Notes under the pieces: generated by a model
The model's database searches: none
Seen by the model: only the letters and a program-made list of their open reading frames with translations
Told to the model about the DNA's origin: nothing
Position numbers and translations under genes: made by a program
IMG/VR virus record: IMGVR_UViG_3300033463_000024
Strand: one strand, 5' to 3'
Origin: a virus
Taxonomy: Duplodnaviria > Heunggongvirae > Uroviricota > Caudoviricetes
DNA: 64,000 nucleotides
Part shown: positions 1,243-63,988 of the stretch, piece after piece
Layout of the letters: each line of letters starts with the position of its first letter
Position numbering within the stretch: position 1 is the stretch's first letter

Positions 1243-2001
1243 CTAGTCCTTCCAGAAACAATACAAGCAGCCGTGCGGGCATCTGCGTGGCTTCGTCCCG
1301 AGAATCTGTTTCTTGGCGAGGCACATGCAGTCCCCACGCTGCTTTTTGTCTGGAGCCCCATATTCCTTCTGCGTTTCCCTGTCAAATCCGAGCAGTTCCA
1401 GGTCATAATAGCTTGCACACCCGTAGTGCAGGAAGTTATAGGGGAACAGTTTCGGCTCGGCACAGCACTCTAAGCGGAAATACTGGTAGAACCGGCAGAA
1501 AATCGTGTCAATGCGCCTGAATACGGCATCGGGAGCCGTAAACGAGTCATAGAAGACCTTGTAGCCAGCCGCTGCAAGGCGTTCTTTTACGTGGGGATAC
1601 AGGTCCACCACGGACACCCTGCACCTGATTTGGTTACGGCATTCCTCGACCACAGGCTTCCACAGTTCCAGTACCTTGATGATGTTGTCCTGTGTTTCCT
1701 TGGACCACAGGATAATCGGATCGAGCCGGAGGACATAGTGGGTCAACGGGAAACCTCTGGACAGCAGCTTTCTAAACTGTGCAAATTCATGGTCCGGGGT
1801 CTGGACATTGGGTTCGAGGACAGTACCGCCCTGCCCGGTGACGGTATGGTGGAAAATTACACGGTCCTGGACAATAAGGAGTTTCTCAATCATCTCGTCG
1901 TTGAGTTCCTTGGAGATGACGATGTTGGCTTCCAGTAGCTTCGTTTCCCAGTCAGGGACGAAGCACGGGTCATATGTTTCAGTTATGCCTATTTTCTTCA
2001 T
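1243..2001 (-). CDS. hypothetical protein with a C-terminal CX3CX2C cysteine cluster (CPHGCLYC); DUF1848/radical-SAM-like Fe-S motif?
   Basis: 252-aa ORF; the C-terminal Cys cluster is read directly from the translation. Confidence 0.55.
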   Translation of the reverse strand: MKKIGITETYDPCFVPDWETKLLEANIVISKELNDEMIEKLLIVQDRVIFHHTVTGQGGTVLEPNVQTPDHEFAQFRKLLSRGFPLTHYVLRLDPIILWSKETQDNIIKVLELWKPVVEECRNQIRCRVSVVDLYPHVKERLAAAGYKVFYDSFTAPDAVFRRIDTIFCRFYQYFRLECCAEPKLFPYNFLHYGCASYYDLELLGFDRETQKEYGAPDKKQRGDCMCLAKKQILGTKPRRCPHGCLYCFWKD

Positions 2002-2007
2002 ATTCTA

Positions 2008-2739
2008 TCACCAGTTGTGTTCATTTTCTGCACGAAGTATGCTGCCATATTCACTATCGTTCAGCAAGCGGTAATACACTTCCCGTGCCGAAAGTATCGC
2101 CGCGCGTTCCTTGAGGAACCTTTCCTCTTCGGCATCCTTGGCTTCTTTTTCTAATTTCTTTGTACTGAACATCAGATGCTTGTCCGGGTCAAACGAGCAT
2201 TCCCAAGGTCTCTTCGTATTCTTAGTGAACTCGTTAGCAAATAGGTCATTTGTTTTTTTCAGCCAGAAATCAAATGCAATTTTAAGTTCGTCGTCAGTCA
2301 AGATATGCACCGCGCCGCTGTAAATCTCGTGCTCGGTCGGCTTGTATGTTCCATCCAAATAAGACACCCGCAAAGTCATAGTATGCCGGTCAGTCAATCT
2401 GGCTGCGTGATCATCATTTACCATCTGGCGACAATACAGATGCACATTATACTTATCCGCATAATCTATGCAAAGCGGGAAATATACGTTAACGTAATCA
2501 TATCCAGGCGGCTCACCAAATGGATTATGATGTTTGATGACTTTAGGACCAAATGAAAACGCTTTTCCTACGAGTTTCTTACAAAAGCTAATGGCTTCCG
2601 CGTTTTCATCCTTCCAAGCCTTTTCCTTGGCTTCGTGCTCCAGTTTTGAATCTTCCTCAAATAACTTGCTGCGTCGCTGTTCAAGTGCCTCTATCTGCTT
2701 ATTGATACGCATGATTTCGGCATGGTTCTTTGACTTCAT
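2008..2739 (-). CDS. hypothetical protein (243 aa)
   Basis: long ORF, protein-like composition, tightly packed with its neighbours. Confidence 0.55.
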   Translation of the reverse strand: MKSKNHAEIMRINKQIEALEQRRSKLFEEDSKLEHEAKEKAWKDENAEAISFCKKLVGKAFSFGPKVIKHHNPFGEPPGYDYVNVYFPLCIDYADKYNVHLYCRQMVNDDHAARLTDRHTMTLRVSYLDGTYKPTEHEIYSGAVHILTDDELKIAFDFWLKKTNDLFANEFTKNTKRPWECSFDPDKHLMFSTKKLEKEAKDAEEERFLKERAAILSAREVYYRLLNDSEYGSILRAENEHNW

Positions 2740-2747
2740 AATACCTC

Positions 2748-3344
2748 CTAATCAAAATTCTCCGTTACACCATCTCGGTCATGCCTACGGCGTTTCAGCT
2801 TCAAGTCAAGTGTATTTGTCAGCCAGATGTCCCACCCAGATTTTGGGAATCCATTCATTTCAGCAAATCGCACATGAATCAGGTCACCTTCAAAGTTCCA
2901 GGTGAAGTCCCAATCACGATACATCTGTCCCAATCGAGCATTCACATAATCATTGCTACACGGAACCTTCTTGTTGATGCACTGGTCGATGAAATAATAC
3001 TGGTCATTTATCGACTGCAATTCCTTGTTTTTCTGTTCTGCCTTTTCCAACTGGCTTCGCATGAACTGGCAGGTTGATGAGTATTCATTAATTTTCTCAC
3101 GCAGTTTGATCATTTCAGCCGTATTCTTAGTTTCAATATTGGGAATGTCCGCAACATGTTCAGCTTTCAGTTCCTTGTCAAGAATCCTGACCGACCACAC
3201 CGGCTTGCTATCAGTAAAGAATACCCCATATACTTCACCTACGCTTGGCGTGGCATCCGAGGTGTTCCACACAACCATGGAACGAGTCTTTCCGTTCCAC
3301 CGGTCAGCAGTTACTTCATACAGTTCAACCCCATTGAAACGCAT
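2748..3344 (-). CDS. hypothetical protein (198 aa)
   Basis: ORF in the minus-strand gene block. Confidence 0.5.
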   Translation of the reverse strand: MRFNGVELYEVTADRWNGKTRSMVVWNTSDATPSVGEVYGVFFTDSKPVWSVRILDKELKAEHVADIPNIETKNTAEMIKLREKINEYSSTCQFMRSQLEKAEQKNKELQSINDQYYFIDQCINKKVPCSNDYVNARLGQMYRDWDFTWNFEGDLIHVRFAEMNGFPKSGWDIWLTNTLDLKLKRRRHDRDGVTENFD

Positions 3345-3569
3345 TTATTCCTCCTGATGACAAGTAAGGACAATCTTCTTGCCCGTATTCCGGTTAGTCC
3401 AGGTAATCTCATACGCTTTATCACCCGGTTTAATCTTGCCGAGCATGTATTCAGCAACTGAACGAAGCGCCTCATCTGTTACATCGTTTTTGCACTTCCA
3501 ATCGCCCGGGTTCTTGATGGTACCGGCATAAATTGCAGCCATACCGCATCCTACATGATATTCAGCCAT
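3345..3569 (-). CDS. hypothetical small protein (74 aa)
   Basis: GAGGAG SD before ATG 3569; the listed ORF start at 3581 is a GTG. Confidence 0.5.
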   Translation of the reverse strand: MAEYHVGCGMAAIYAGTIKNPGDWKCKNDVTDEALRSVAEYMLGKIKPGDKAYEITWTNRNTGKKIVLTCHQEE

Positions 3570-3570
3570 A

Positions 3571-3846
3571 TTACTCCTCACTTAAACCATCAGCCTGCCA
3601 CAACAGAGTATCAAGTACCACAGTTCCACCGCCTATTCCGCTATCATCTTCATTGTCCGATGCGAGTAAATACAACCCACCATCCTGCTTATAGACCTGG
3701 AATATGCCGCTCCACCCTTTCGGATAATCAGCAAACATTGGTGCATCATCAGGTAACTTAGACTTACGAATAATCTGTTTAAACTTACCAATGGTAAGAG
3801 TCTTTAAGTCAATCTGCCTCTGTGTCAAGGATTTGCCATTTTTCAT
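3571..3846 (-). CDS. hypothetical protein (91 aa)
   Basis: ORF with contiguous packing. Confidence 0.45.
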   Translation of the reverse strand: MKNGKSLTQRQIDLKTLTIGKFKQIIRKSKLPDDAPMFADYPKGWSGIFQVYKQDGGLYLLASDNEDDSGIGGGTVVLDTLLWQADGLSEE

Positions 3847-4118
3847 GTTTCGTTTTCCTTCTTGCGTTCATTCTCGATCACACGTTCCAACGCGGCAACC
3901 AGTTCATTTACGGTGGTACATTCACTGAATGTGCCGTCAGTGATGAAACAGTCGAAGTCGGTTGCCGCATCGCATTCCATCAGCATCCCGTCCACGACAT
4001 CGAACATGGTGCAGTCGGCCAGGCATGTTGAGTTTTCAAGGCACTGGCGGGTGACCTGGAAGCGATCTTCCAACCAGTTAAGTACCCATTCTTTCGGGTC
4101 CGTTATGATTTCGTGCAT
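3843..4118 (-). CDS. hypothetical acidic Cys-rich protein (91 aa)
   Basis: ORF; 4-nt overlap with the downstream gene. Confidence 0.45.
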   Translation of the reverse strand: MHEIITDPKEWVLNWLEDRFQVTRQCLENSTCLADCTMFDVVDGMLMECDAATDFDCFITDGTFSECTTVNELVAALERVIENERKKENET

Positions 4119-4121
4119 AGT

Positions 4122-4457
4122 CTATCCCTTCATCCATTCATTGACTTTGTCAATCGGGAAACCAGCCCTTACCAGGTAGTCATGAAGGATATACCCATAA
4201 TATGCCGAATAATTGGGCGGCCATGAAGCTATCTCTTCCTTAACCCATACGTCCATCGGCATGATTTCCATATAGTCCACATGCAAAACAGCGTGACAGT
4301 TCATCTCAACAAGAAAATGGTACAATGGCGCATAGCTCGCCGACACTCCGTCGAAAAACTCAGCGAATGACGATTCATGCATAAACTTGCGAACCTCGTC
4401 CTTCACTTCCTCGGAAACGCCTTCCCTAAATTTTACATTCATGTTATCGTCCTTCAA
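4122..4457 (-). CDS. hypothetical protein (111 aa)
   Basis: ORF. Confidence 0.45.
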   Translation of the reverse strand: MKDDNMNVKFREGVSEEVKDEVRKFMHESSFAEFFDGVSASYAPLYHFLVEMNCHAVLHVDYMEIMPMDVWVKEEIASWPPNYSAYYGYILHDYLVRAGFPIDKVNEWMKG

Positions 4458-11420: not shown

Positions 11421-11734
11421 TATTTACGCCCCAGGTACATGTAAGTGTCGGAGTCTTCGGCCCATGCTGCAATGTGCTTCTTGCAGGACGGGCACTCCGT
11501 TGCCAAAATGAAGCTGGCCTTACGTTCCGGGTTGTACCATCGGGCCCTCCCGCGCATGGGGGTGCATTTGTAGACCCACATCTGGTCATAACCGGCCATG
11601 AAGGCGGCCTGGCAGTGCAAGCACTTGAACTCTACGCCGTAGCGGATCTCGTTGAACTTGACATCATCGTCCAGTTCCACGTCGTAGTCACTGGAAATGT
11701 CGAGACTCTTCCTTACATCTTGTTCCGATACCAT
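11420..11734 (-). CDS. zinc-ribbon protein (CxxC...CxxC), 104 aa; its 5' end is duplicated at 13113..13254
   Basis: AGGAG SD; KCLHC...CPSCK motifs. Confidence 0.55.
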   Translation of the reverse strand: MVSEQDVRKSLDISSDYDVELDDDVKFNEIRYGVEFKCLHCQAAFMAGYDQMWVYKCTPMRGRARWYNPERKASFILATECPSCKKHIAAWAEDSDTYMYLGRK

Positions 11735-11743
11735 ATTACACTC

Positions 11744-12776: not shown

Positions 12777-13211
12777 CTAATCGGGGAACACCTTGTCGAG
12801 CGCCTTGGTGAACAGGTAGTGGGCGCCTGGCCCCCAGACACCGTTGGCAATGCCTGTACCGATAATCCCCCACTTCGCCGGTTCTTGAGCCGTCAATGAA
12901 CAGTATGTCATTCCCGCCATGATGGGGAGGCCCACCCAGATTATGTAGAGTACCAGGAGAATGCAGATTAAGGCGGCTACGCCAAGTCCCTTCATCAGCG
13001 TGAGATAGCATTCCGCCCATGTCTCGTCCTTGAAGAATACTGGCCTCAGGGGCACCGGGGACCACAGGACAATCGCAGCAATGACCAGGATACCGGGCAC
13101 GAGGCCGACATCCGGCCATGAATGCGGCCTGACAATGTTTGCACTTGAATGATACACCGCCGCGAATTTCATTGAACTTGACATCGTCATCCAGTTCCAC
13201 CTCATATTCAC
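12777..13211 (-). CDS. small membrane protein, paralog of 14112..14591 (shared C-terminus W.PGAHYL..K.LDKVF); N-terminally truncated and chimeric, since its first ~33 codons are an alternate-frame reading of the duplicated segment
   Basis: protein-level similarity to its paralog over ~110 aa; lacks the paralog's first TM helix. Confidence 0.4.
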   Translation of the reverse strand: MNMRWNWMTMSSSMKFAAVYHSSANIVRPHSWPDVGLVPGILVIAAIVLWSPVPLRPVFFKDETWAECYLTLMKGLGVAALICILLVLYIIWVGLPIMAGMTYCSLTAQEPAKWGIIGTGIANGVWGPGAHYLFTKALDKVFPD

Positions 13212-13254
13212 TGGAAATATTAAGACTCTTTCTTATATCTTGTTCCGATACCAT
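13113..13254 (-). pseudogene. duplicated 5' fragment (47 codons, MVSEQDIRKS...CQAAFMAG) of the zinc-ribbon gene 11420..11734, then frame-shifted into the membrane gene
   Basis: ~147 bp at ~78% identity to 11591..11737, including the SD and ATG; downstream translation is R/P/G-rich junk. Confidence 0.55.
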
Positions 13255-13266
13255 ATCACCTCGCAT

Positions 13267-14609: not shown

Positions 14610-14637
14610 AAATATAGCATATTTTTGCTATATTTGG
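14610..14637. promoter_or_regulatory. divergent promoter pair: AAATATAGCATA (minus) and TTTTTGCTATATTTGG (plus)
   Basis: variant consensus boxes facing genes 14591 (minus) and 14641 (plus); the plus ATG is 4 nt after its box. Confidence 0.5.
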
Positions 14638-21853: not shown

Positions 21854-21986
21854 TCAATAGTTTTATATGATTTTGAGATGTCAAAAATGGACAATGGGGC
21901 AATTTGCCGAATACATGCGACAGCAGTTTGAATATGTACATTCAGTATTCAGCAGTCACAGCCTATAAGGGCAGGGTTATGAAACT

Positions 21987-22805
21987 ATGGGAAGAATTCT
22001 AAACAAAATGTACATCTTGTCCGGTGGTGTCACCGGGGAAGACAAGCTCTCCTCCTACCGCTTCCTTACCAAGAAGATGCTCGACACCACCCCGCAATGG
22101 GGATACGTGTGCCCACTGTTCGACAAGGCGCTCGAAGTGGACAGCACCGGCCACAAGGTCGAGTACGGCAAGGATTCCTATGACGCCTACTGGCACACAT
22201 GGGACAATACCCTGTTGAAGGACCTGAACTGCAAGAGGGTCGCCAAGATCAACGAGAAGTGGGAATACCTCGACATCGAGCCGTTCCACGAGGGAAGCGT
22301 CGATGACTACCTCCGCGAACAGGGATACACGCGCAAGATTGGCGACTATGGCTCCGGATGGTACGACAAGGACCATGTCCCTCCCTTCAAGCTGGCCATA
22401 TTCAGCGCAATCCACCGCAAGCTCGAACTGGAATGGGACTTCAAGCGCAACCGCCACGCGGGCATCGTCCCGAACATGAAGAAGGACGAGCTCACAATCT
22501 ATACCGGCGAAGCCTCGCACTACTACGATGGCGAAATCGGCCACGTCCGCGTGGATGGCATGAAGGTCGTCATTGACCTGTACGACAGGACCTACACCTT
22601 CGGGAGCGAGACCGACCAGGGCTTCATCGACTTCGTTAAGCTCTGCCAGGATTCCAATGCGGCGATGCTCGACGCCACCTCAAAGGAAAAGTACAAGAAG
22701 GACCCCGAGTTCGACGAATGGCTCGCCAGGGGCAACGCACGCCAGCTTGCACGCCGGCAGGAACAGTTCGCCGAGATTTTCAACATGTACAAGGAGAACC
22801 CATGA
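21987..22805 (+). CDS. hypothetical protein (272 aa), first gene of a GC-richer plus-strand module
   Basis: long ORF with protein-like composition; the overlapping antisense ORFs are R/P/G-rich. Confidence 0.55.
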   Translation: MGRILNKMYILSGGVTGEDKLSSYRFLTKKMLDTTPQWGYVCPLFDKALEVDSTGHKVEYGKDSYDAYWHTWDNTLLKDLNCKRVAKINEKWEYLDIEPFHEGSVDDYLREQGYTRKIGDYGSGWYDKDHVPPFKLAIFSAIHRKLELEWDFKRNRHAGIVPNMKKDELTIYTGEASHYYDGEIGHVRVDGMKVVIDLYDRTYTFGSETDQGFIDFVKLCQDSNAAMLDATSKEKYKKDPEFDEWLARGNARQLARRQEQFAEIFNMYKENP

Positions 22806-52121: not shown

Positions 52122-52194
52122 AGCGGGAGACGAGATTCGAACTCGCGACCTAGGCAATGGGAATGCCTCGCTCTACCACCTGAGCTACTCCCGC
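52122..52194 (-). tRNA. tRNA-Gly (anticodon CCC); CCA not encoded
   Basis: cloverleaf folded by hand: acceptor GCGGGAG/CTCCCGC, D-arm GCTC/GAGC, anticodon stem AGGCA/TGCCT with loop TTCCCAT, T-arm GCGAG-TTCGAAT-CTCGT. Confidence 0.85.
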
Positions 52195-52450
52195 ATGGTG
52201 GGCCTCCGTGGTAAATCACGTCACGGTAACGGGTGGTCCAACCGTTTCCCCTTTTACCCCAGGGGAAGGGTGCCTAATTTCTTCCTTATGGGAGCGAATT
52301 TCCAGAAAGGGGAAAGGCATCCCCCGCCGCATGATATCTGCATGGGCACAGAACCATTTACTGATGATTCAGGACCGCTCATCGGCTGCCTGGTCATGAC
52401 CCCAAGCGACACTCCACTGATTCTTGTGGCAGAACGGACGACTGTTATCC

Positions 52451-52480
52451 CGAATATAGCAAATTTCCAGCCATATCGGA
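52451..52480 (-). promoter_or_regulatory. promoter-like box AAATTTGCTATATTCG (minus) about 260 nt upstream of the tRNA
   Basis: variant consensus without a clear GTTGCC element. Confidence 0.35.
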
Positions 52481-52495
52481 GGATTTTCCTAAATT

Positions 52496-56885: not shown

Positions 56886-57965
56886 CTATCCCCCGATCGT
56901 CTTGATGTAATCTTCAAGGATTTGGTTATGGTGGAACGCCAAGTGAGCCTTGCGGGCTACGCTCAACGGGAACCATGCTGCCTCGGCAGCATCGTCGTCA
57001 CCCTTGACTGCCCCGAAAATCCCACGAACATAGACACCCACGTCATACGCCCAGTGTCCAGGAACATTCTCGCGAGGGTCTTCCGGGATATACACCTTCA
57101 ATTGGTGAACCTGATTAGGGTAGAGTACAAGCCCCGTTTCCTCATGGAGTTCACGACAGCTGCAATTCTCGATGGGTTCATGCGGATTGGTAAAGCCACC
57201 AGGGAGACACCAGTAGTTAGCGAACGGCCAGCGCTTGCGGCGCACTAGAAGCACCTGGTCCTCTCGACCAATGGTAGGTTCGCCAATGCTGTTGATAACC
57301 ACGGAAGTCACCGTAACCGAAGGTTTTGGATAATCGCCTGGCTTGTAGTTGGCAAGTTCCTGATGTTCAGTGTTCCAATGTATTAGCGGATTATCCTGGT
57401 GATATAATCCATGCTGGAAAATATACCCAAGAACTTGCGGCGAAACCGACATTCCCCCATACATGGGGTTCATGAGCATGTCACTACGGACAGCTGTGGA
57501 CGACACATCGGGAACATTTACGAAAATAGGGTTGATATCGCCTCGGGTACCAAGTTCCGTATGGAAATTGAAGTTTTTTCCACGGTTGAATACACGGATG
57601 CTGTACTTGTCGATGAGCTTGTCAGAATCTTTCCACTTGCCGGCCAGAAGGGCTTCAAGCTCATCCATGCCGATAATGAGGTCAATGTCCGGATTCTTGT
57701 TCTCGGATCCGGAAACATATGTTCCATACACTGTTTCGAGATTATCGAAGGTACGAACCGACTGCTTATGGATGTTCAGTTTCGGAAACCGGGCAATCAA
57801 CATGCCATAACGGTCCTGGAATGATGCATTGTACTGTTTTTCATCATTGTCGGTCACATAGACATGGACTTCCGGGTAGTTTTCCAAAAGATACTGAATA
57901 ATTGCCTCATGGGCAACGGTAAGCGGGTCAAATGCGCCGCCATAAACTGCAATCTTGTGTTCCAT
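56886..57965 (-). CDS. nadM: bifunctional NMN adenylyltransferase / Nudix ADP-ribose pyrophosphatase (NadM-Nudix)
   Basis: N-terminal IAVYGGAFDPLTVAH nucleotidyltransferase motif; C-terminal Nudix box GGFTNPHEPIENCSCRELHEETGL. Confidence 0.8.
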   Translation of the reverse strand: MEHKIAVYGGAFDPLTVAHEAIIQYLLENYPEVHVYVTDNDEKQYNASFQDRYGMLIARFPKLNIHKQSVRTFDNLETVYGTYVSGSENKNPDIDLIIGMDELEALLAGKWKDSDKLIDKYSIRVFNRGKNFNFHTELGTRGDINPIFVNVPDVSSTAVRSDMLMNPMYGGMSVSPQVLGYIFQHGLYHQDNPLIHWNTEHQELANYKPGDYPKPSVTVTSVVINSIGEPTIGREDQVLLVRRKRWPFANYWCLPGGFTNPHEPIENCSCRELHEETGLVLYPNQVHQLKVYIPEDPRENVPGHWAYDVGVYVRGIFGAVKGDDDAAEAAWFPLSVARKAHLAFHHNQILEDYIKTIGG

Positions 57966-59069: not shown

Positions 59070-59103
59070 CCAAAATGTAGCAAAATGGGCAGAAGGTGGC
59101 AAC
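59070..59103 (-). promoter_or_regulatory. conserved promoter GTTGCC-N13-TTTGCTACATTTTGG
   Basis: exact consensus copy; abuts the stop of the upstream gene. Confidence 0.65.
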
Positions 59104-61625
59104 TAGTCCTTCACCAGGAACAAAAACCGTCTGCGGGAGTTTGTAAACTTGTTGTACTGTATGAAGCCCTCGTCGGTAATGTACTGCCCATCGCCGACCA
59201 TAAGTCTCTCTTCTTGCCGTTCGGTCTCAGTGTGCATTATGAGCTGGTCGCCAACAAGATCAACCCTTGCCGACCTAAACCAATGAATCTGCGTTTTCAC
59301 GTTCCCATCAGTGTCAAGCAAGTCCGTGATACATACTTCCTGCGACACAAACGGGGCCACATTGCCAAATGTTGAATTTTGAATAAACCCGGTGTCTTGG
59401 CCAGCAATTTTAACCAATGAACCAAACCCCATCAAGTCCCGCATGATATCCGGCGCACTCTTTCCAGTTTCCCGGATTTCATCATCCTCATCCTCGTTAC
59501 TGTGAACTATGTCGCACCTTCCCTGGTCAGTCGTAATATACAGAGATGGATATGAATCATCCTTATGTAATTGTTTCGGTATCCTGACACCGCACATGGT
59601 AAACGCACGGCCATTAGACCAGGAATTGGAGCATATTTTGTTGCAATTTCCAGCACCGCTTCGAATAACCTTTCCACCCAACGCCGAATACAGGCGATAC
59701 AGGTCATCAATGGTTGGCAAGTGCCAGCCGTCCGGTATGGTCTCCTTGATATCCGCATGCGAATACAATACACCCCGCGAACCATCTTCAGCCGTCACGC
59801 TGACGGTAATGGACGGATTGAGAGCGCGTATAATCGCTTCCGTCTCCGGGGTTAAAGCATCCGCCTTGTATCTATATGTGACGAGTTCCCTTGCCTTACC
59901 AAACTGTAAATAGTTACGCGAATGCGGCGTGTTGGAATGGGTCAATAATATAAGTGACGCTCGGCCATATGTGCCGGAGTTGCCTACCTGGTCGGTTATC
60001 CTAAACTCCCCAATACCCCGGCCATTGGTATATTCCTTAACAAGCATATCGGTAACAACTGTAACACTCGTCTCGTCATGCGGGAGGTTCGCTTTCTCCA
60101 GTGCATCACGCACGGTTCGCTCACGTTCATCACGCACTTGTGCCCAGTAGTTGTCAGCCTGGCCAAAATCAAGACATGACGACAAGTCCTCTAATAAAGA
60201 GCCATCGATGATGGTATCGCCTATCTTGACCCCTTCAAGAAACACGTTATATATCGCATCATACACATCTATGTTGCCACCCATACTAACATAGCATCTG
60301 GAGGAAGTCTTTACCACATAGTTATTCGGCATATCATGGTGAACATACACCGAATCATTAACCCGGCCATTGCATTCATGCGTTATGACATTTGCCGTCT
60401 CAGCATCGGCAGGATGTTGCCAGTCAATCGAACATGTCAGTCCTTCTTCTGTGCGGGTAACACACAGGATCGGAAGGAATACCTTGATTTCCGGGCGTAC
60501 GGGGCATAGTATGGTTTCCAGTTTTTTCAGATTTGCCGGAATTTCCGGAATTTTCGTTGGAGAGTACTTGAGTGGTTCGGCCATCCACGTCCTGCCTCCA
60601 ATAGTCTCCGTACGGTAGGTCTTGCCATCCCTCTTGTCAGTGAATGTTCCGGACCGGCGAATGCGGTTCTTGCCAAGGCATATACTCTTAGTAATCTTCT
60701 TCCTATCAGCAATCACCTTGGCATTGTTTGTAAGTCGCTCCTCGCGCATGCGGACCGCCAGCTCACGATATGTATCATGCCCATAGGGTGGGCATAGTTC
60801 AAAGAATGGGCCACCAAGCAAGTCCGAAAGTTCAACCTCGTCGTACTTGTTGTCGCCCTTGCGGACATCCACATTGTCATGGGCATGGTTCCACCGGTTA
60901 TTCACATGGACTAGACGGCCACCGGGCCCGATGTCGATACCCAGCATGGATTCGCCATACAGTTCATCGCTTTCGGTCAAATTCTCGAAACCAGGAAGAA
61001 CGGCCAGGTAAAGTTTCACCGGCAGCTTCTTATCCCCGGCACTGGCCATCCGATAATGGTCAAACATGCTCTGTGAATTGAGGTGGCACCACACATGCGG
61101 CTGGGTGTATTCGGCATATTTGTTCGCCGTTTCAAATTCATCAAGAGGGATTATCTCATAACGTCTCTGTCCATACTTCCGTCTGCGGAGCATGCGTCGC
61201 ATCGCGCTCCATTGCTTGGCTATCCTCTGGCCATATATTTCATCAAGTTCCTTGAATGACGGGCGTCTACCGTCAATACCAAGATAACGGTCATACTCAC
61301 TCGAATGGGCAATGGAAATAATGCGAATTATGTCATGAAGACGGCCAATCGGCCCCGGTTCTTCATCACCTGTACCAAGCGACAATTCGCCAAACGCAAT
61401 TCTTGCGGCACCCGGCGCGAAACGGATCTTGCACTGTCCGTCCCTGAAAAAGTGGGTACGGACCTCCTGGTATGCTGCACGGGTCCAGGAAGAAATCCCC
61501 CTTTTCTGGGCAATTTCCTCATAGATAGTCTGCAGCCGCCCCCTGTTGGGTAGGGCCATCAGGACCTTCTTGGTGTAGCGGTAGGCATCGCCTTCTGAAC
61601 CATGTGCAGTTTCGTTCGGTAGCAT
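59103..61625 (-). CDS. large protein (840 aa) with a Fibrobacter-succinogenes-major-paralogous-type domain (FTDKRDGKTYRTETIGGRTWMAEPL ... DGWHLPTIDDLYRL)
   Basis: domain signature recognised in the translation; N-terminal ~330 aa unassigned. Confidence 0.6.
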   Translation of the reverse strand: MLPNETAHGSEGDAYRYTKKVLMALPNRGRLQTIYEEIAQKRGISSWTRAAYQEVRTHFFRDGQCKIRFAPGAARIAFGELSLGTGDEEPGPIGRLHDIIRIISIAHSSEYDRYLGIDGRRPSFKELDEIYGQRIAKQWSAMRRMLRRRKYGQRRYEIIPLDEFETANKYAEYTQPHVWCHLNSQSMFDHYRMASAGDKKLPVKLYLAVLPGFENLTESDELYGESMLGIDIGPGGRLVHVNNRWNHAHDNVDVRKGDNKYDEVELSDLLGGPFFELCPPYGHDTYRELAVRMREERLTNNAKVIADRKKITKSICLGKNRIRRSGTFTDKRDGKTYRTETIGGRTWMAEPLKYSPTKIPEIPANLKKLETILCPVRPEIKVFLPILCVTRTEEGLTCSIDWQHPADAETANVITHECNGRVNDSVYVHHDMPNNYVVKTSSRCYVSMGGNIDVYDAIYNVFLEGVKIGDTIIDGSLLEDLSSCLDFGQADNYWAQVRDERERTVRDALEKANLPHDETSVTVVTDMLVKEYTNGRGIGEFRITDQVGNSGTYGRASLILLTHSNTPHSRNYLQFGKARELVTYRYKADALTPETEAIIRALNPSITVSVTAEDGSRGVLYSHADIKETIPDGWHLPTIDDLYRLYSALGGKVIRSGAGNCNKICSNSWSNGRAFTMCGVRIPKQLHKDDSYPSLYITTDQGRCDIVHSNEDEDDEIRETGKSAPDIMRDLMGFGSLVKIAGQDTGFIQNSTFGNVAPFVSQEVCITDLLDTDGNVKTQIHWFRSARVDLVGDQLIMHTETERQEERLMVGDGQYITDEGFIQYNKFTNSRRRFLFLVKD

Positions 61626-61650
61626 CGTTACTCTCTTTAAAAAACAGAAA

Positions 61651-61688
61651 CTGCGGCCTTACAGGGGCGTCCCCCTGCTCGACCGCAG
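61651..61688 (-). terminator. intrinsic terminator/attenuator hairpin (CUGCGGUCGAGCAGGGGGACGCCCCUGUAAGGCCGCAG then a U-run) inside the 5' leader, about 25 nt before the 840-aa start codon
   Basis: GC-rich nested hairpin followed by UUUCUGUUUUUU on the minus transcript. Confidence 0.5.
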
Positions 61689-61820
61689 CCTCCAAGGACC
61701 TTTCAAGAACACGCGCCAGCCGCTGACCACCTTGCGGTGAGGGCCGACACACGTCCCATCCAAATCCTCTTCGTTCAATCCAGCCAGTCAGCCGCGCAAG
61801 GGGCCGCCTAGCCGTTATTC

Positions 61821-61852
61821 AATATATAGCAATTACTGTTGCATTTGGCAAC
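61821..61852 (-). promoter_or_regulatory. conserved promoter GTTGCC-N14-TTGCTATATATT, about 190 nt upstream of the 840-aa gene
   Basis: consensus-like copy. Confidence 0.55.
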
Positions 61853-61855
61853 CGG

Positions 61856-62275
61856 TTATTTCTTTTGCTGGTTCGGCTTTTCGACTTCATCCGCAGCACC
61901 CTTCAAGATAATGGAGAGACTGTGGACAATTTCCTGTGTATCCTTGCCAGCCTGCTGCAAATTGGCAGAATCGGCAAGCTTAGACACGATTTCAGAACCA
62001 TACATGGCGTACATTTCCGTCTTCGGCGGAATTGCAGAAGCAAGGATGGAAAAGAACAGGAATGCCGGTAACCAATATTGGACTCGCATGAACTTAATCC
62101 ATGGTTCAATTTCTTCCACATCCCGTTGGCTTCCGGAATCCTTTGCACCCTTCCAGATAACGAACATGACAAATGCGATAATCGCACCAAAGAATGCCAC
62201 GGTAGCCAAGACCTTGAAAAGGTCATCCAAGCCATCAAGGAACGAAGTGATGAAAATAAAAGTAGAAAGTTTCAT
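61856..62275 (-). CDS. membrane protein (139 aa)
   Basis: hydrophobic ORF. Confidence 0.5.
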   Translation of the reverse strand: MKLSTFIFITSFLDGLDDLFKVLATVAFFGAIIAFVMFVIWKGAKDSGSQRDVEEIEPWIKFMRVQYWLPAFLFFSILASAIPPKTEMYAMYGSEIVSKLADSANLQQAGKDTQEIVHSLSIILKGAADEVEKPNQQKK

Positions 62276-62290
62276 GGTTTAATCTTCTTA

Positions 62291-62725
62291 TTACTTGGTT
62301 CCGGTAGAGCCGAAGCCACCACGGTCCTTATCAACCATCTGGCCTTCAACAATGTTGATTTTCGGCTGCTTCTCCATGATGCGGAACTGGCAGATGCGTT
62401 CACCGCGCTTGATTACCGTATCGCGGGTAGCATATGCAGGGAAGCGCCACCAGTCATTAGGGCCACAATAGGAGTTGTCTACGACACCAACAGAGTTTGC
62501 CTGGAGAACACCGAAGTTCTTGAGGGTGGAAGAACGCGGAGCAAGATGCGCTTCATATCCTTCTGGAAGCTTCATTGCCACGCCAAGATGAATGAGCTTA
62601 AGTTCACCTTGCTTGATTTCCACATCTTCGTCGGCAGTAAGATCAATCCAGTCACCCTTTTCGCGAATGGTGATACGGGCGGTTTCTGGGGAACGATATT
62701 GGACGGTGATTGTTTCTTCTTTCAT
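62291..62725 (-). CDS. dut: dUTP diphosphatase (dUTPase)
   Basis: motifs [13 protein letters not shown] and C-terminal DRGGFGSTG; AAAGGAAAG SD. Confidence 0.85.
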
Positions 62726-62743: not shown

Positions 62744-63988
62744 TTAAAAATTCTTCCATTCCATCGGAAGGATATTTTTAGAGAGTTCGACTGCAAACTC
62801 GTCGATTTCTTCCGGCGTATAGGCCTTTTCCTTTAATCCGGATGCGGCAAAAGCCTTGTTAACTTCCTTGCCAAGTGCACCGATATAGTCGATGATGTCG
62901 TCAAACGTCCAGTCACCATTCTTGATTGCAAGGAGGAAATCGCGGTCATTGCTGTACGGGTGCTTGTTGTAATCCATACAGACCATGTTGCACAAATCCT
63001 TATCAGCGCGGTAGACCGGGACGGTATGCTCGGTGGCGATACCGTAAGCGGTAAGGAGCAGACGGACACAGTGCATGATGTTCTTCGCATCGTAGCCTTG
63101 GCCATGCTTCAACGTGGTGTTGTAGCGTTCCTCGTTACGGGACTTGACCCAATCCCAATACTCGTGCCACTTCTTGCATTTACGTGCAAAGTCGTTGCGG
63201 TTCACGAAGATATGGGCAACGGAGCTCAAACCCTTTGGGATGGAGTTGAGTTGGATATCATCGCTGCGCTCGATGTCACGGACGACACCATAGCCCCAAC
63301 GCCACTTGTGCTCGGGAAGCTGACGGACACCCTTGAATACCTTGGAGAGACATTTCCGGACGAATTTGTGGATACTGATGGACAGCGGCTTCTTCTGGAA
63401 ATACACCGCGTAGATGCAATCGCCATGGTCGATCCGGGCGATGGAGAACCAACGCTGGACTTCTTCCGGCTTGCCGCGATAATTGGCCTTAATCCATTCC
63501 ATGAGGGGAGTGGCGAGGTTGCCATCGAGGACATAGATGAAATCGACGAAACGCGGGCGCCTCTCCGGCTGCGGATCGAATACCTTCTTGTTCAGGCCCT
63601 TCGCACGGTCAACCTGGCCACGGGCATACTCGCAGAACGACTTGTCACAACGCATGGTGAGGAAGTCAAATTTCTTTCGGAGGATTTCGAGGATAGACTG
63701 GCCCACAAATACGCAATGCTTCGGAGCATAGAGCATTTCGAGGGCCTGGGGATTGGCGGAGTTCAACTCGGTAAGGAACTTCGTGATGTCCCAGTAGACC
63801 TCGTTGTTCTTCTCGTCGGCAATCTGGCTCGGGGCATCGTGCTTGATGCGCTCGCTCCATTTCAGGATATACACACCGTGAATGTCCACATCGGAAGTCT
63901 CGGTGGCAAGACCGAACGACTGCGAACCCGCGGCCACCTTGATGAGGAGGATACCCTTTTCATGGACCCTCTTCTCGGTTTCGGACAT
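62744..63988 (-). CDS. Pol-beta-superfamily nucleotidyltransferase, RlaP-like (RNA-repair-pathway NTase); GSQSFGLATETSDVDIHGV
   Basis: hG[GS]x9-13DxD NTase signature at the N-terminus; 414 aa. Confidence 0.5.
   Translation of the reverse strand: MSETEKRVHEKGILLIKVAAGSQSFGLATETSDVDIHGVYILKWSERIKHDAPSQIADEKNNEVYWDITKFLTELNSANPQALEMLYAPKHCVFVGQSILEILRKKFDFLTMRCDKSFCEYARGQVDRAKGLNKKVFDPQPERRPRFVDFIYVLDGNLATPLMEWIKANYRGKPEEVQRWFSIARIDHGDCIYAVYFQKKPLSISIHKFVRKCLSKVFKGVRQLPEHKWRWGYGVVRDIERSDDIQLNSIPKGLSSVAHIFVNRNDFARKCKKWHEYWDWVKSRNEERYNTTLKHGQGYDAKNIMHCVRLLLTAYGIATEHTVPVYRADKDLCNMVCMDYNKHPYSNDRDFLLAIKNGDWTFDDIIDYIGALGKEVNKAFAASGLKEKAYTPEEIDEFAVELSKNILPMEWKNF

Follow-up and report, generated by a model that had tools for sequence, protein, structure and literature searches.

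Introduction

RNAs and proteins encoded as neighboring gene pairs have given new biochemistry before, as in the omega-RNA nucleases, the retrons and the type III toxin-antitoxin systems. Here we describe a structured RNA that forms the leader of an 840-amino-acid (aa) gene on the minus strand of a 64,000-nucleotide (nt) stretch of Caudoviricetes DNA (IMG/VR record IMGVR_UViG_3300033463_000024; the whole stretch is called the window below), and compare it with the closest described systems. In HEARO, the omega-RNA of IscB/IsrB, and in the retron msr/msd, a conserved structured RNA lies beside the gene of one protein family, shares its strand, usually precedes it and is sometimes co-transcribed with it, all of which applies to the element described here. 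In contrast to these systems, its partner protein carries neither a RuvC or HNH domain nor a reverse-transcriptase domain, and the element showed no terminal repeats or guide-like variable segment and has no match to HEARO in Rfam. The ToxIN-like type III toxin-antitoxin systems share with the locus the order of promoter, non-coding RNA, intrinsic terminator and protein gene, and the terminator of ToxIN ensures that more of the RNA is made than of the protein mRNA. The likeness is one of layout only: the element in the window is phage-borne, Tandem Repeats Finder returned no tandem repeats in 61500-61950, unlike type III antitoxin RNAs, and the protein has no ToxN-, CptN- or AbiE-type toxin match in Pfam, PADLOC or NCBIfam. 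The ROOL and GOLLD RNAs likewise come from phage or rumen sequence, often adjoin tRNA genes and are rich in GNRA-type tertiary motifs (PMC5737381, PMC12286853), but they are 2-4 times larger (about 500-800 nt), have Rfam models of their own and are not tied to one protein family.

The locus also has the layout of attenuating riboswitches and T-box leaders, with a promoter, a conserved structured leader, an intrinsic terminator, an open reading frame (ORF) and a predicted, mutually exclusive alternative helix. A preliminary description of the window had read the leader as a riboswitch or attenuator candidate, possibly related to the ZTP (pfl) class. Like a ZTP riboswitch, it is a GC-rich 5' leader with a terminator at its end, and it has a short UGACUGGCU stretch resembling part of the ZTP consensus; the gene downstream of it, in contrast, is not a purine or folate gene. 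Unlike the attenuating classes, the RNA family lies outside the 5' untranslated region (UTR) in other clades, where a promoter stands between RNA and gene, the RNA is a unit of its own or it follows the gene, and it is tied to one protein family instead of a metabolic regulon. Literature searches returned no description of this RNA. We propose that the leader is a local, shortened member of an uncatalogued structured-RNA family that accompanies the protein family of the 840-aa gene in rumen jumbo-phage contigs, a reading to which we assign a probability of roughly 0.5.

Results

Architecture of the leader RNA

On the minus strand, a 139-aa ORF ends at 61856, upstream of a predicted promoter at 61852-61821, and about 190 untranslated bases then precede the 840-aa ORF, which begins at 61625. 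The features of the locus are as follows.

61821..61852, minus strand: promoter, one of 22 copies of the motif, with a -33-like GTTGCC at 61852-61847 and a -7-like GCTATATATT at 61830-61821
~61817-61815, minus strand: putative transcription start, placed from the leaderless genes
61639..61816, minus strand: structured leader RNA of ~178 nt (H1, H2, H3 and U-run), delimited by its fold and its conservation in 12 relatives
61781..61814, minus strand: hairpin H1, GGCUAGGCGGCC / GGCUGACUGGCU, with an 8-nt loop; kept in 12 sequences, absent from L002 and L009
61782..61807, minus strand: 5' strand of an alternative helix (candidate antiterminator), overlapping H1
61694..61769, minus strand: H2, a long helix of 29 pairs with covariation, carrying the core module
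61708..61755, minus strand: core module, a CGGCC/GGCUG helix with an invariant G:U around a bulged C, a GNRA hairpin and a 5-nt UCAGC
61740-61727, minus strand: GNRA hairpin UCACC-GCAA-GGUGG near the top of H2, covarying in relatives
61646..61693, minus strand: H3, predicted terminator hairpin with a 13-bp lower stem, a 7-bp upper stem and a GACG loop, containing the family motif GGUCGA
61667..61690, minus strand: 3' strand of the alternative helix, overlapping the 5' half of H3
61639..61644, minus strand: U6 run, separated from H3 by one G (61645) and read directly from the sequence
61623..61637, minus strand: Shine-Dalgarno-like AGAGAG and AUG, both unpaired in the predicted fold
59103..61625, minus strand: 840-aa gene, with a ~320-aa N-terminal domain, unmatched by family or fold, and behind it a split FISUMP (TIGR02145)

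The leader folds with a minimum free energy (MFE) of -98.2 kcal/mol (z = -4.84), a stability that none of 200 shuffled sequences reached, in agreement with its earlier description as structured. The folded part (61646-61814) has a GC content of 64.5%, while 195-nt segments of the window average 47.2% (sd 5.3, maximum 63.1). The contrast of about 65% with 48% given before thus holds for the folded part, and the full interval 61626-61820 comes to 59.5%. H3 alone is worth -37.4 kcal/mol with a pair probability of 0.99. It has the predicted features of an intrinsic terminator, which are a stable GC-rich hairpin followed by G and U6, on the transcribed strand and downstream of a promoter. The terminator and its U-tract were therefore correctly recognized, although they lie closer to the AUG than the ~25 nt first stated, at 20 nt for the end of the stem and 13 nt for the end of the U-run. 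A simple terminator scanner missed H3 because of the internal loops in its stem; the same scanner found no terminator between the upstream 139-aa gene and the promoter. The GNRA hairpin noted before is present near the top of H2, and it covaries in relatives. The long-range complementarity (GCUGAC/GUCAGC) also exists in the window, but it lies outside the conserved fold and is lost in relatives, as in L001, where UCUAAAC replaces UCAGC. We also observed that each RNA contains several copies of a 5-bp CGGCC/GGCUG unit with a G:U pair, which are spread over different helices and can point either way. The window has it in the inner H1 stem and at the H2 top, clade B in two nested helices and clade A2 in its closing stem (clades are described below). 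This recurring unit may serve as a recognition unit or as a receptor for the GNRA loop.

The length of the leader is exceptional for the window. A census of the promoter motif (GCTAYATWT) gave 22 copies in 64 kb, most with GTTGCC ~16 nt upstream, and most are followed by an ATG either 4 nt downstream (leaderless) or 16-28 nt downstream; the copy at 61830 is the outlier, with 195 nt to the ATG, as the preliminary description had noticed. In the same census, no copy lies between H3 and the AUG, so that expression of the 840-aa gene would need read-through of the terminator. The shared motif (GTTGCC, ~16 nt, TTTGCTAYATTT) occurs at its 22 sites on both strands, for example at 59081, 55088, 42353, 14085, 9802 and 6306 on the minus strand and at 14627, 20274 and 35166 on the plus strand, and is also found among the repeat families D2, D3 and D10 of the window. 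It resembles the -33/-7 promoters of Bacteroidota. The frequent spacing of 4 nt to the ATG would imply mostly leaderless mRNAs and a host transcription apparatus of the Bacteroidota type.

The partner protein family and its loci

About 120 metagenomic homologs of the 840-aa protein were found, many on contigs of 100-480 kb and some in IMG/VR viral genomes, which points to jumbo phages, mostly from rumen samples. We collected 60 gene-carrying loci from rumen metagenomes, and the same or a related RNA is present in 46 of them, as the core module in 32 (recognized by model or by eye) and as a putatively related variant in 14. The homologs share an invariant N-terminal domain of ~320 aa with the motif GSEGDAYRYTKKVL right after the Met, from residue 9. 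Because this conserved motif begins right behind the Met, the start codon of the 840-aa gene is fixed. Two public gene calls of 887 aa, P0007 and P0008, wrongly translate part of the RNA. In L002, where P0008 covers 1687-4350, the called start is a GTG inside the RNA at GUGCUACGGCCCUCACC..., so that 47 spurious residues precede the true start, the Met in front of GSEGDAYRY.

Searches with the 840-aa protein against Pfam, PHROGs, PADLOC and NCBIfam returned nothing beyond the split FISUMP domain, whose first part (residues 327-355) corresponds to the beginning of the NCBIfam profile and whose second part (residues 615-652) corresponds to positions 48-88 of the Pfam profile. A sequence-profile search of the PDB gave no match. 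AlphaFold models of the protein are confident, with predicted local distance difference test (pLDDT) values of 83.8 and 90.1, and a structure search of BFVD returned only a weak PcfJ-like match with a template modeling (TM) score of 0.19.

Conservation and covariation

The three-hairpin leader is common to 12 clade-A loci. Across these sequences, H1 and H3 together have 98.6% of their cells paired and two pairs with double changes: H1 is paired in 100% of cells with one G:C to A:U double change, and H3 in 97.9% with one A:U to C:G double change. H2 has 29 pairs with 96.2% of cells paired, three of them with double changes, and its covariation score lies above those of all 500 shuffles. The leader is 85-88% identical to those of L010, L011 and L039, whereas nt 301-1200 of the coding sequence (codons 100-400) are only 50-65% identical. 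The leaders of close relatives are set apart by 1-, 2- and 4-nt indels, which would break a reading frame and show that the region is not coding. H1 is missing from two close relatives, L002 and L009, in which H2, H3 and the U-run are retained.

Beyond clade A, the conserved part of the RNA is the core, which consists of the CGGCC/GGCUG helix with its invariant G:U, an optional bulged C, a GNRA hairpin of 4-5 bp and an A-rich 3' strand of 5-7 nt with the variants UCAGC, UCUAAAC and GAACGC. Plain MAFFT misaligned hairpins of unequal length, and an alignment made by hand was used instead, with 13 distinct sequences including that of the window and with gaps written as N; it was fitted by eye to the structure and is to that extent biased in its favor. 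In this alignment, 97.1% of the cells are paired and nine of the 19 pairs show double changes, in 33 cells. The covariation score is 0.506 compared with 0.197 for shuffles, none of which reached the observed value in 500 trials, and controls in which the pairing was slid are paired in 35-45% of cells. The pairing in relatives thus bears out the structure drawn from the window, both within clade A and, for the core, across clades.

A first narrow covariance model, R1, missed clade B and was replaced by R2, which was built from the 13-sequence hand alignment. In the window, R2 has a single match in 64 kb, at 61755-61708 (51.3 bits, E = 1.2e-11; the window is in the training set). It matches 24 of the first 50 loci in addition to the window, with one core per locus and always on the strand of the gene, and it also matches five loci outside its training set, L053-L057, with E-values from 5e-13 to 2e-5. 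The many G:U pairs, one of them invariant, indicate that the constraint acts on the RNA of the gene's strand and not on DNA. We define the proposed family by a core module on the same strand as, and beside, a gene of the GSEGDAYRYTKKVL family, and all of these are found in the window at 61755-61708.

Comparison with known RNA classes

All 4227 families of Rfam 15 were searched, at the gathering score on the window and 17 loci and at E <= 10 on the leader region (61550-61900) and the full-length relatives. At the gathering score, the only matches in the window (one) and in the 17 loci were tRNA. At E <= 10, only chance-level miRNA and snoRNA matches (E 5-9) were obtained for 61550-61900, and nothing above chance level for the full-length relatives. 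With no Rfam match, memberships in ZTP (RF01750), NAD+, c-di-GMP, T-box, HEARO, ROOL and GOLLD were rejected, and the Rfam search that the preliminary description had named as a check does not bear out its suggestion of a ZTP, T-box or other known riboswitch class. The ZTP-like UGACUGGCU forms the 3' strand of H1; relatives have other sequences there (UGGCCGGCC, UGUCCGGCC) that still pair, unlike the invariant, unpaired or pseudoknotted nucleotides of a ZTP core.

The lectin-like FISUMP C-terminus had raised the idea that the leader is the template repeat of a diversity-generating retroelement (DGR), and this was rejected since the leader has no repeat in the gene. Elsewhere in the window, a 148-nt direct repeat (11592-11739 / 13112-13259, 82% identical) forms the starts of two paralogous small genes on the minus strand. 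It too was rejected as a DGR template/variable pair, because most of its mismatches are transitions and adenines are not favored among them.

Variable position of the RNA among clades

Across the family, the RNA is 150-390 nt long, and its position relative to the gene differs between clades (promoters in relatives were assigned from motifs). It lies between promoter and ORF, as the leader, in clades A, A2 and D, and not in clades B and C or in L043. Clade A2 (L003, L008, L058-62) has a rod of 150-170 nt with 54 pairs, 14 of them compensatory, which is closed by GGACGGCC/GGCUGUCC and a U-run 20-25 nt before the ATG, and in clade D (L035, L036) the leader is ~390 nt long. Clade B comprises L005, L006, L007, L021, L025-29, L033, L034, L037 and L049, with L034 assigned by eye, its variant core having been missed by R2. 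Its order is promoter, tRNA-Gly(CCC), RNA, second promoter motif and gene. The clade-B RNA is ~250 nt long, or 325-332 nt in the case of L007 and L021, and a 19-bp helix, P1, closes it; the 3' end of P1 overlaps the second promoter motif, which is followed by a short hairpin and a T-run. Eight full-length RNAs of the clade-B type give a consensus fold of 72 pairs, 23 of them with compensatory changes. In clade C (L004, L015-18, L048), an RNA of ~320 nt has its own promoter and terminator, after which come the gene promoter and a leaderless ATG. In L043, an RNA of the clade-B type with its own promoter stands directly downstream of the gene.

The tRNA immediately preceding the RNA was tRNA-Gly(CCC) at all clade-B loci checked (L005 2091-2164, L006 2106-2179, L007 2030-2103, L034 1276-1349, L037 2094-2166). 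Several relatives have a hairpin and T-run right behind the promoter motif of the gene (L005 2437-2470, L006 2453-2478, L007 2453-2487, L043 2440-2480), with the putative start inside the 5' arm of the hairpin. Such a hairpin could stop upstream transcripts of tRNA and RNA and yet stay incomplete in transcripts from the promoter itself.

Searches for further members were also made. GenBank phages searched by blastn gave a match only to the dUTPase gene of SPbeta-like phages and no annotated relative of the region. An IMG/VR search with the single protein and an exact IMG/VR search with a 29-nt leader string gave no match. The clade-B core motif was found by exact search in only two IMG/VR contigs, both already known as gene carriers, and in none of 185,579 bacterial and archaeal genomes.

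Genomic surroundings

Just upstream of the promoter, the window encodes on the minus strand a dUTPase (62291-62725) and a nucleotidyltransferase resembling RlaP of an RNA-repair pathway (62744-63988). The order of RlaP, dUTPase, small ORF(s), RNA and gene is common to the window and L001, and L002 has the same order from the dUTPase onward, its contig ending upstream of the dUTPase. Downstream, at 56886-57965 on the minus strand, a 359-aa ORF has nicotinamide/nicotinate-nucleotide adenylyltransferase and Nudix domains (NadM/Nudix-like), which points to a putative phage-encoded NAD+ salvage; NAD+ salvage has been reported for gut jumbo phages (PMC11662467).

The sole tRNA of the window is also a tRNA-Gly(CCC), at 52122-52194 on the strand of the gene and ~7 kb downstream of it. 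It is preceded at 52195-52495 (minus strand) by ~300 nt without an ORF, reaching from a promoter motif near 52460 to the tRNA, which is an unusually long 5' leader for a tRNA. Its fold is not unusual (z = -0.85), and it has no match to R2. Of the untranslated stretches of the window, neither this one nor 21858-21995 is unusually structured.

Discussion

The element upstream of the 840-aa gene is real. Its best description is that of a new family of ORF-associated structured RNAs, present here in an arrangement of leader and terminator. Its fold is supported by conservation and covariation, it matches no Rfam family, and its position varies relative to promoter motifs, tRNA and gene. Seen against these results, the preliminary description had the anatomy right and the class wrong, while its regulatory reading is supported in part. 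In the explanation we favor, transcription would start at ~61816 from the promoter at 61852-61821, and the RNA would fold into H1, H2 with its conserved core, and H3. H3 and U6 would end most transcripts and release a stable RNA of ~175 nt, and the 840-aa gene, which has no promoter of its own here, would be expressed only from transcripts that read through H3. Under this proposal, the short RNA would consequently outnumber the mRNA. The most likely role of the RNA is to work with the encoded protein or to act on it, as a putative cofactor, scaffold, antidote or autoregulatory binding site, and metabolite sensing is unlikely. A stand-alone RNA is favored because a metabolite riboswitch should stay between promoter and ORF and this RNA does not; it appears to behave like a gene of its own that is kept beside one protein family.

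Several observations weigh against this explanation. Promoters, start sites and termination were assigned from motifs, and the alternative helix, which is conserved, fits a switch acting in cis equally well. No such RNA was found within ~2.5 kb in 16 of 50 loci that were selected by protein, and therefore either the link with the gene is optional or those genomes carry the RNA at another site. The RNAs of clades C, D and A2 lack the R2 core and have only the short motifs ACGGCCCUGG, GGUCGAC and GCGGCUG in common with those of clades A and B; their homology to the RNA of the window is plausible.

The alternative helix is the center of the principal rival explanation, a transcription attenuator acting in cis, in which H1 and H3 would terminate and a 22-bp helix between the H1 region (61807-61782) and the 5' half of H3 (61690-61667) would allow read-through, with the switch set by a small ligand or, in an autoregulatory way, by the encoded protein. 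The layout of promoter, structured leader, terminator and ORF with no second promoter is what such a device needs, and genes for NAD salvage and nucleotide metabolism lie near the leader. The helix excludes both H1 and the terminator, forms in co-transcriptional snapshots of truncated transcripts and is the best fold when the 3' strand of H3 is blocked (-83.2 kcal/mol, compared with -100.3 kcal/mol for the full MFE). It is pairable in 93.3% of cells in the 12 relatives, with slid controls at 36-52%, but its pair counts are not above those of shuffles (108/500). One series of changes from C:G through U:G to U:A (L011, L057) follows the helix, and the A of this series breaks a pair of H3; conversely, changes in the H1 loop of L055 and compensated changes in H3 of L013 break pairs of the helix and leave H1 and H3 intact. 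The 5' segment required by the helix is missing from L002 and L009, yet both keep H2, H3 and the U-run. In clade A2, the closing stem of the family doubles as the terminator stem, a logic that runs the other way, and in clades B and C and in L043 the RNA lies outside the 5' UTR of the gene. Rfam gave no riboswitch or T-box match even at E <= 10. We consider an attenuator rather unlikely. Of the earlier attenuator reading, the promoter-proximal conserved leader with a terminator stands, and the predicted 22-bp helix is in keeping with it; the occurrence of the same RNA outside the 5' UTR elsewhere does not fit. Conditional read-through by way of the alternative helix could operate in the lineage of the window.

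The conservation might also reflect little more than recent common ancestry, the leader being a strong terminator or insulator with hairpins that protect the 5' end of the mRNA and having no specific partner or ligand. Clade-A leaders are indeed closely related (87% mean column identity), so that many of their pairs never vary, hairpins after promoters are common in these phages, and the upstream 139-aa gene and the promoter have no terminator between them. This account is hard to reconcile with a core that has persisted, and covaries, across clades with unrelated flanks and a protein identity of only 40-60%, with a leader that is more conserved than the adjoining coding DNA in L010, L011 and L039, and with the occurrence of the same RNA as a separate unit in other relatives. 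A plain stabilizing hairpin, moreover, would have no need of the conserved GNRA loop, invariant G:U and A-rich strand; we find this account improbable. Far less probable still is that the feature is not an RNA, being instead a DNA-level element (a protein-binding inverted repeat, an origin or a packaging site) or a short coding region. The region is GC-rich and full of inverted repeats, a 77-aa ORF with a GTG start overlaps the leader, and gene callers extended the homologous ORF into the leader of L002 (P0008, 887 aa). Against this, the frequent G:U and U:G pairs, including the invariant one, would be mismatches on the other strand or in duplex DNA, the U-run follows the hairpin on the RNA strand only, protein conservation starts right behind the annotated Met, and the leader carries the frame-breaking indels described above. 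The DNA-element and small-ORF readings are therefore disfavored.

Returning to an RNA that works with the encoded protein, a more specific form can be conceived, in which the RNA and the N-terminal domain would make up a previously unknown phage ribonucleoprotein with the RNA as an obligate structural or specificity subunit, like omega-RNA, Y RNA or phi29 pRNA. We put this forward tentatively, as a possibility that is somewhat doubtful at present. In rumen jumbo phages, such a system would have ties to the tRNA-Gly(CCC)/tRNA-array region, and the RNA of the window would double as a terminator-based device for dosage or feedback.

A practical point concerns public catalogues, whose 887-aa gene calls P0007 and P0008 include a wrongly translated part of the RNA. 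The variety of layouts in the family, with the RNA as leader with terminator, linked to a tRNA, independent or downstream of the gene, amounts to a natural experiment on whether the RNA acts in cis or in trans. If the proposal is true, the element would represent a new class of structured RNA with good covariation support, one that Rfam 15 lacks, that is confined to uncultivated rumen jumbo phages and that accompanies a protein family without a recognizable conserved-domain fold.

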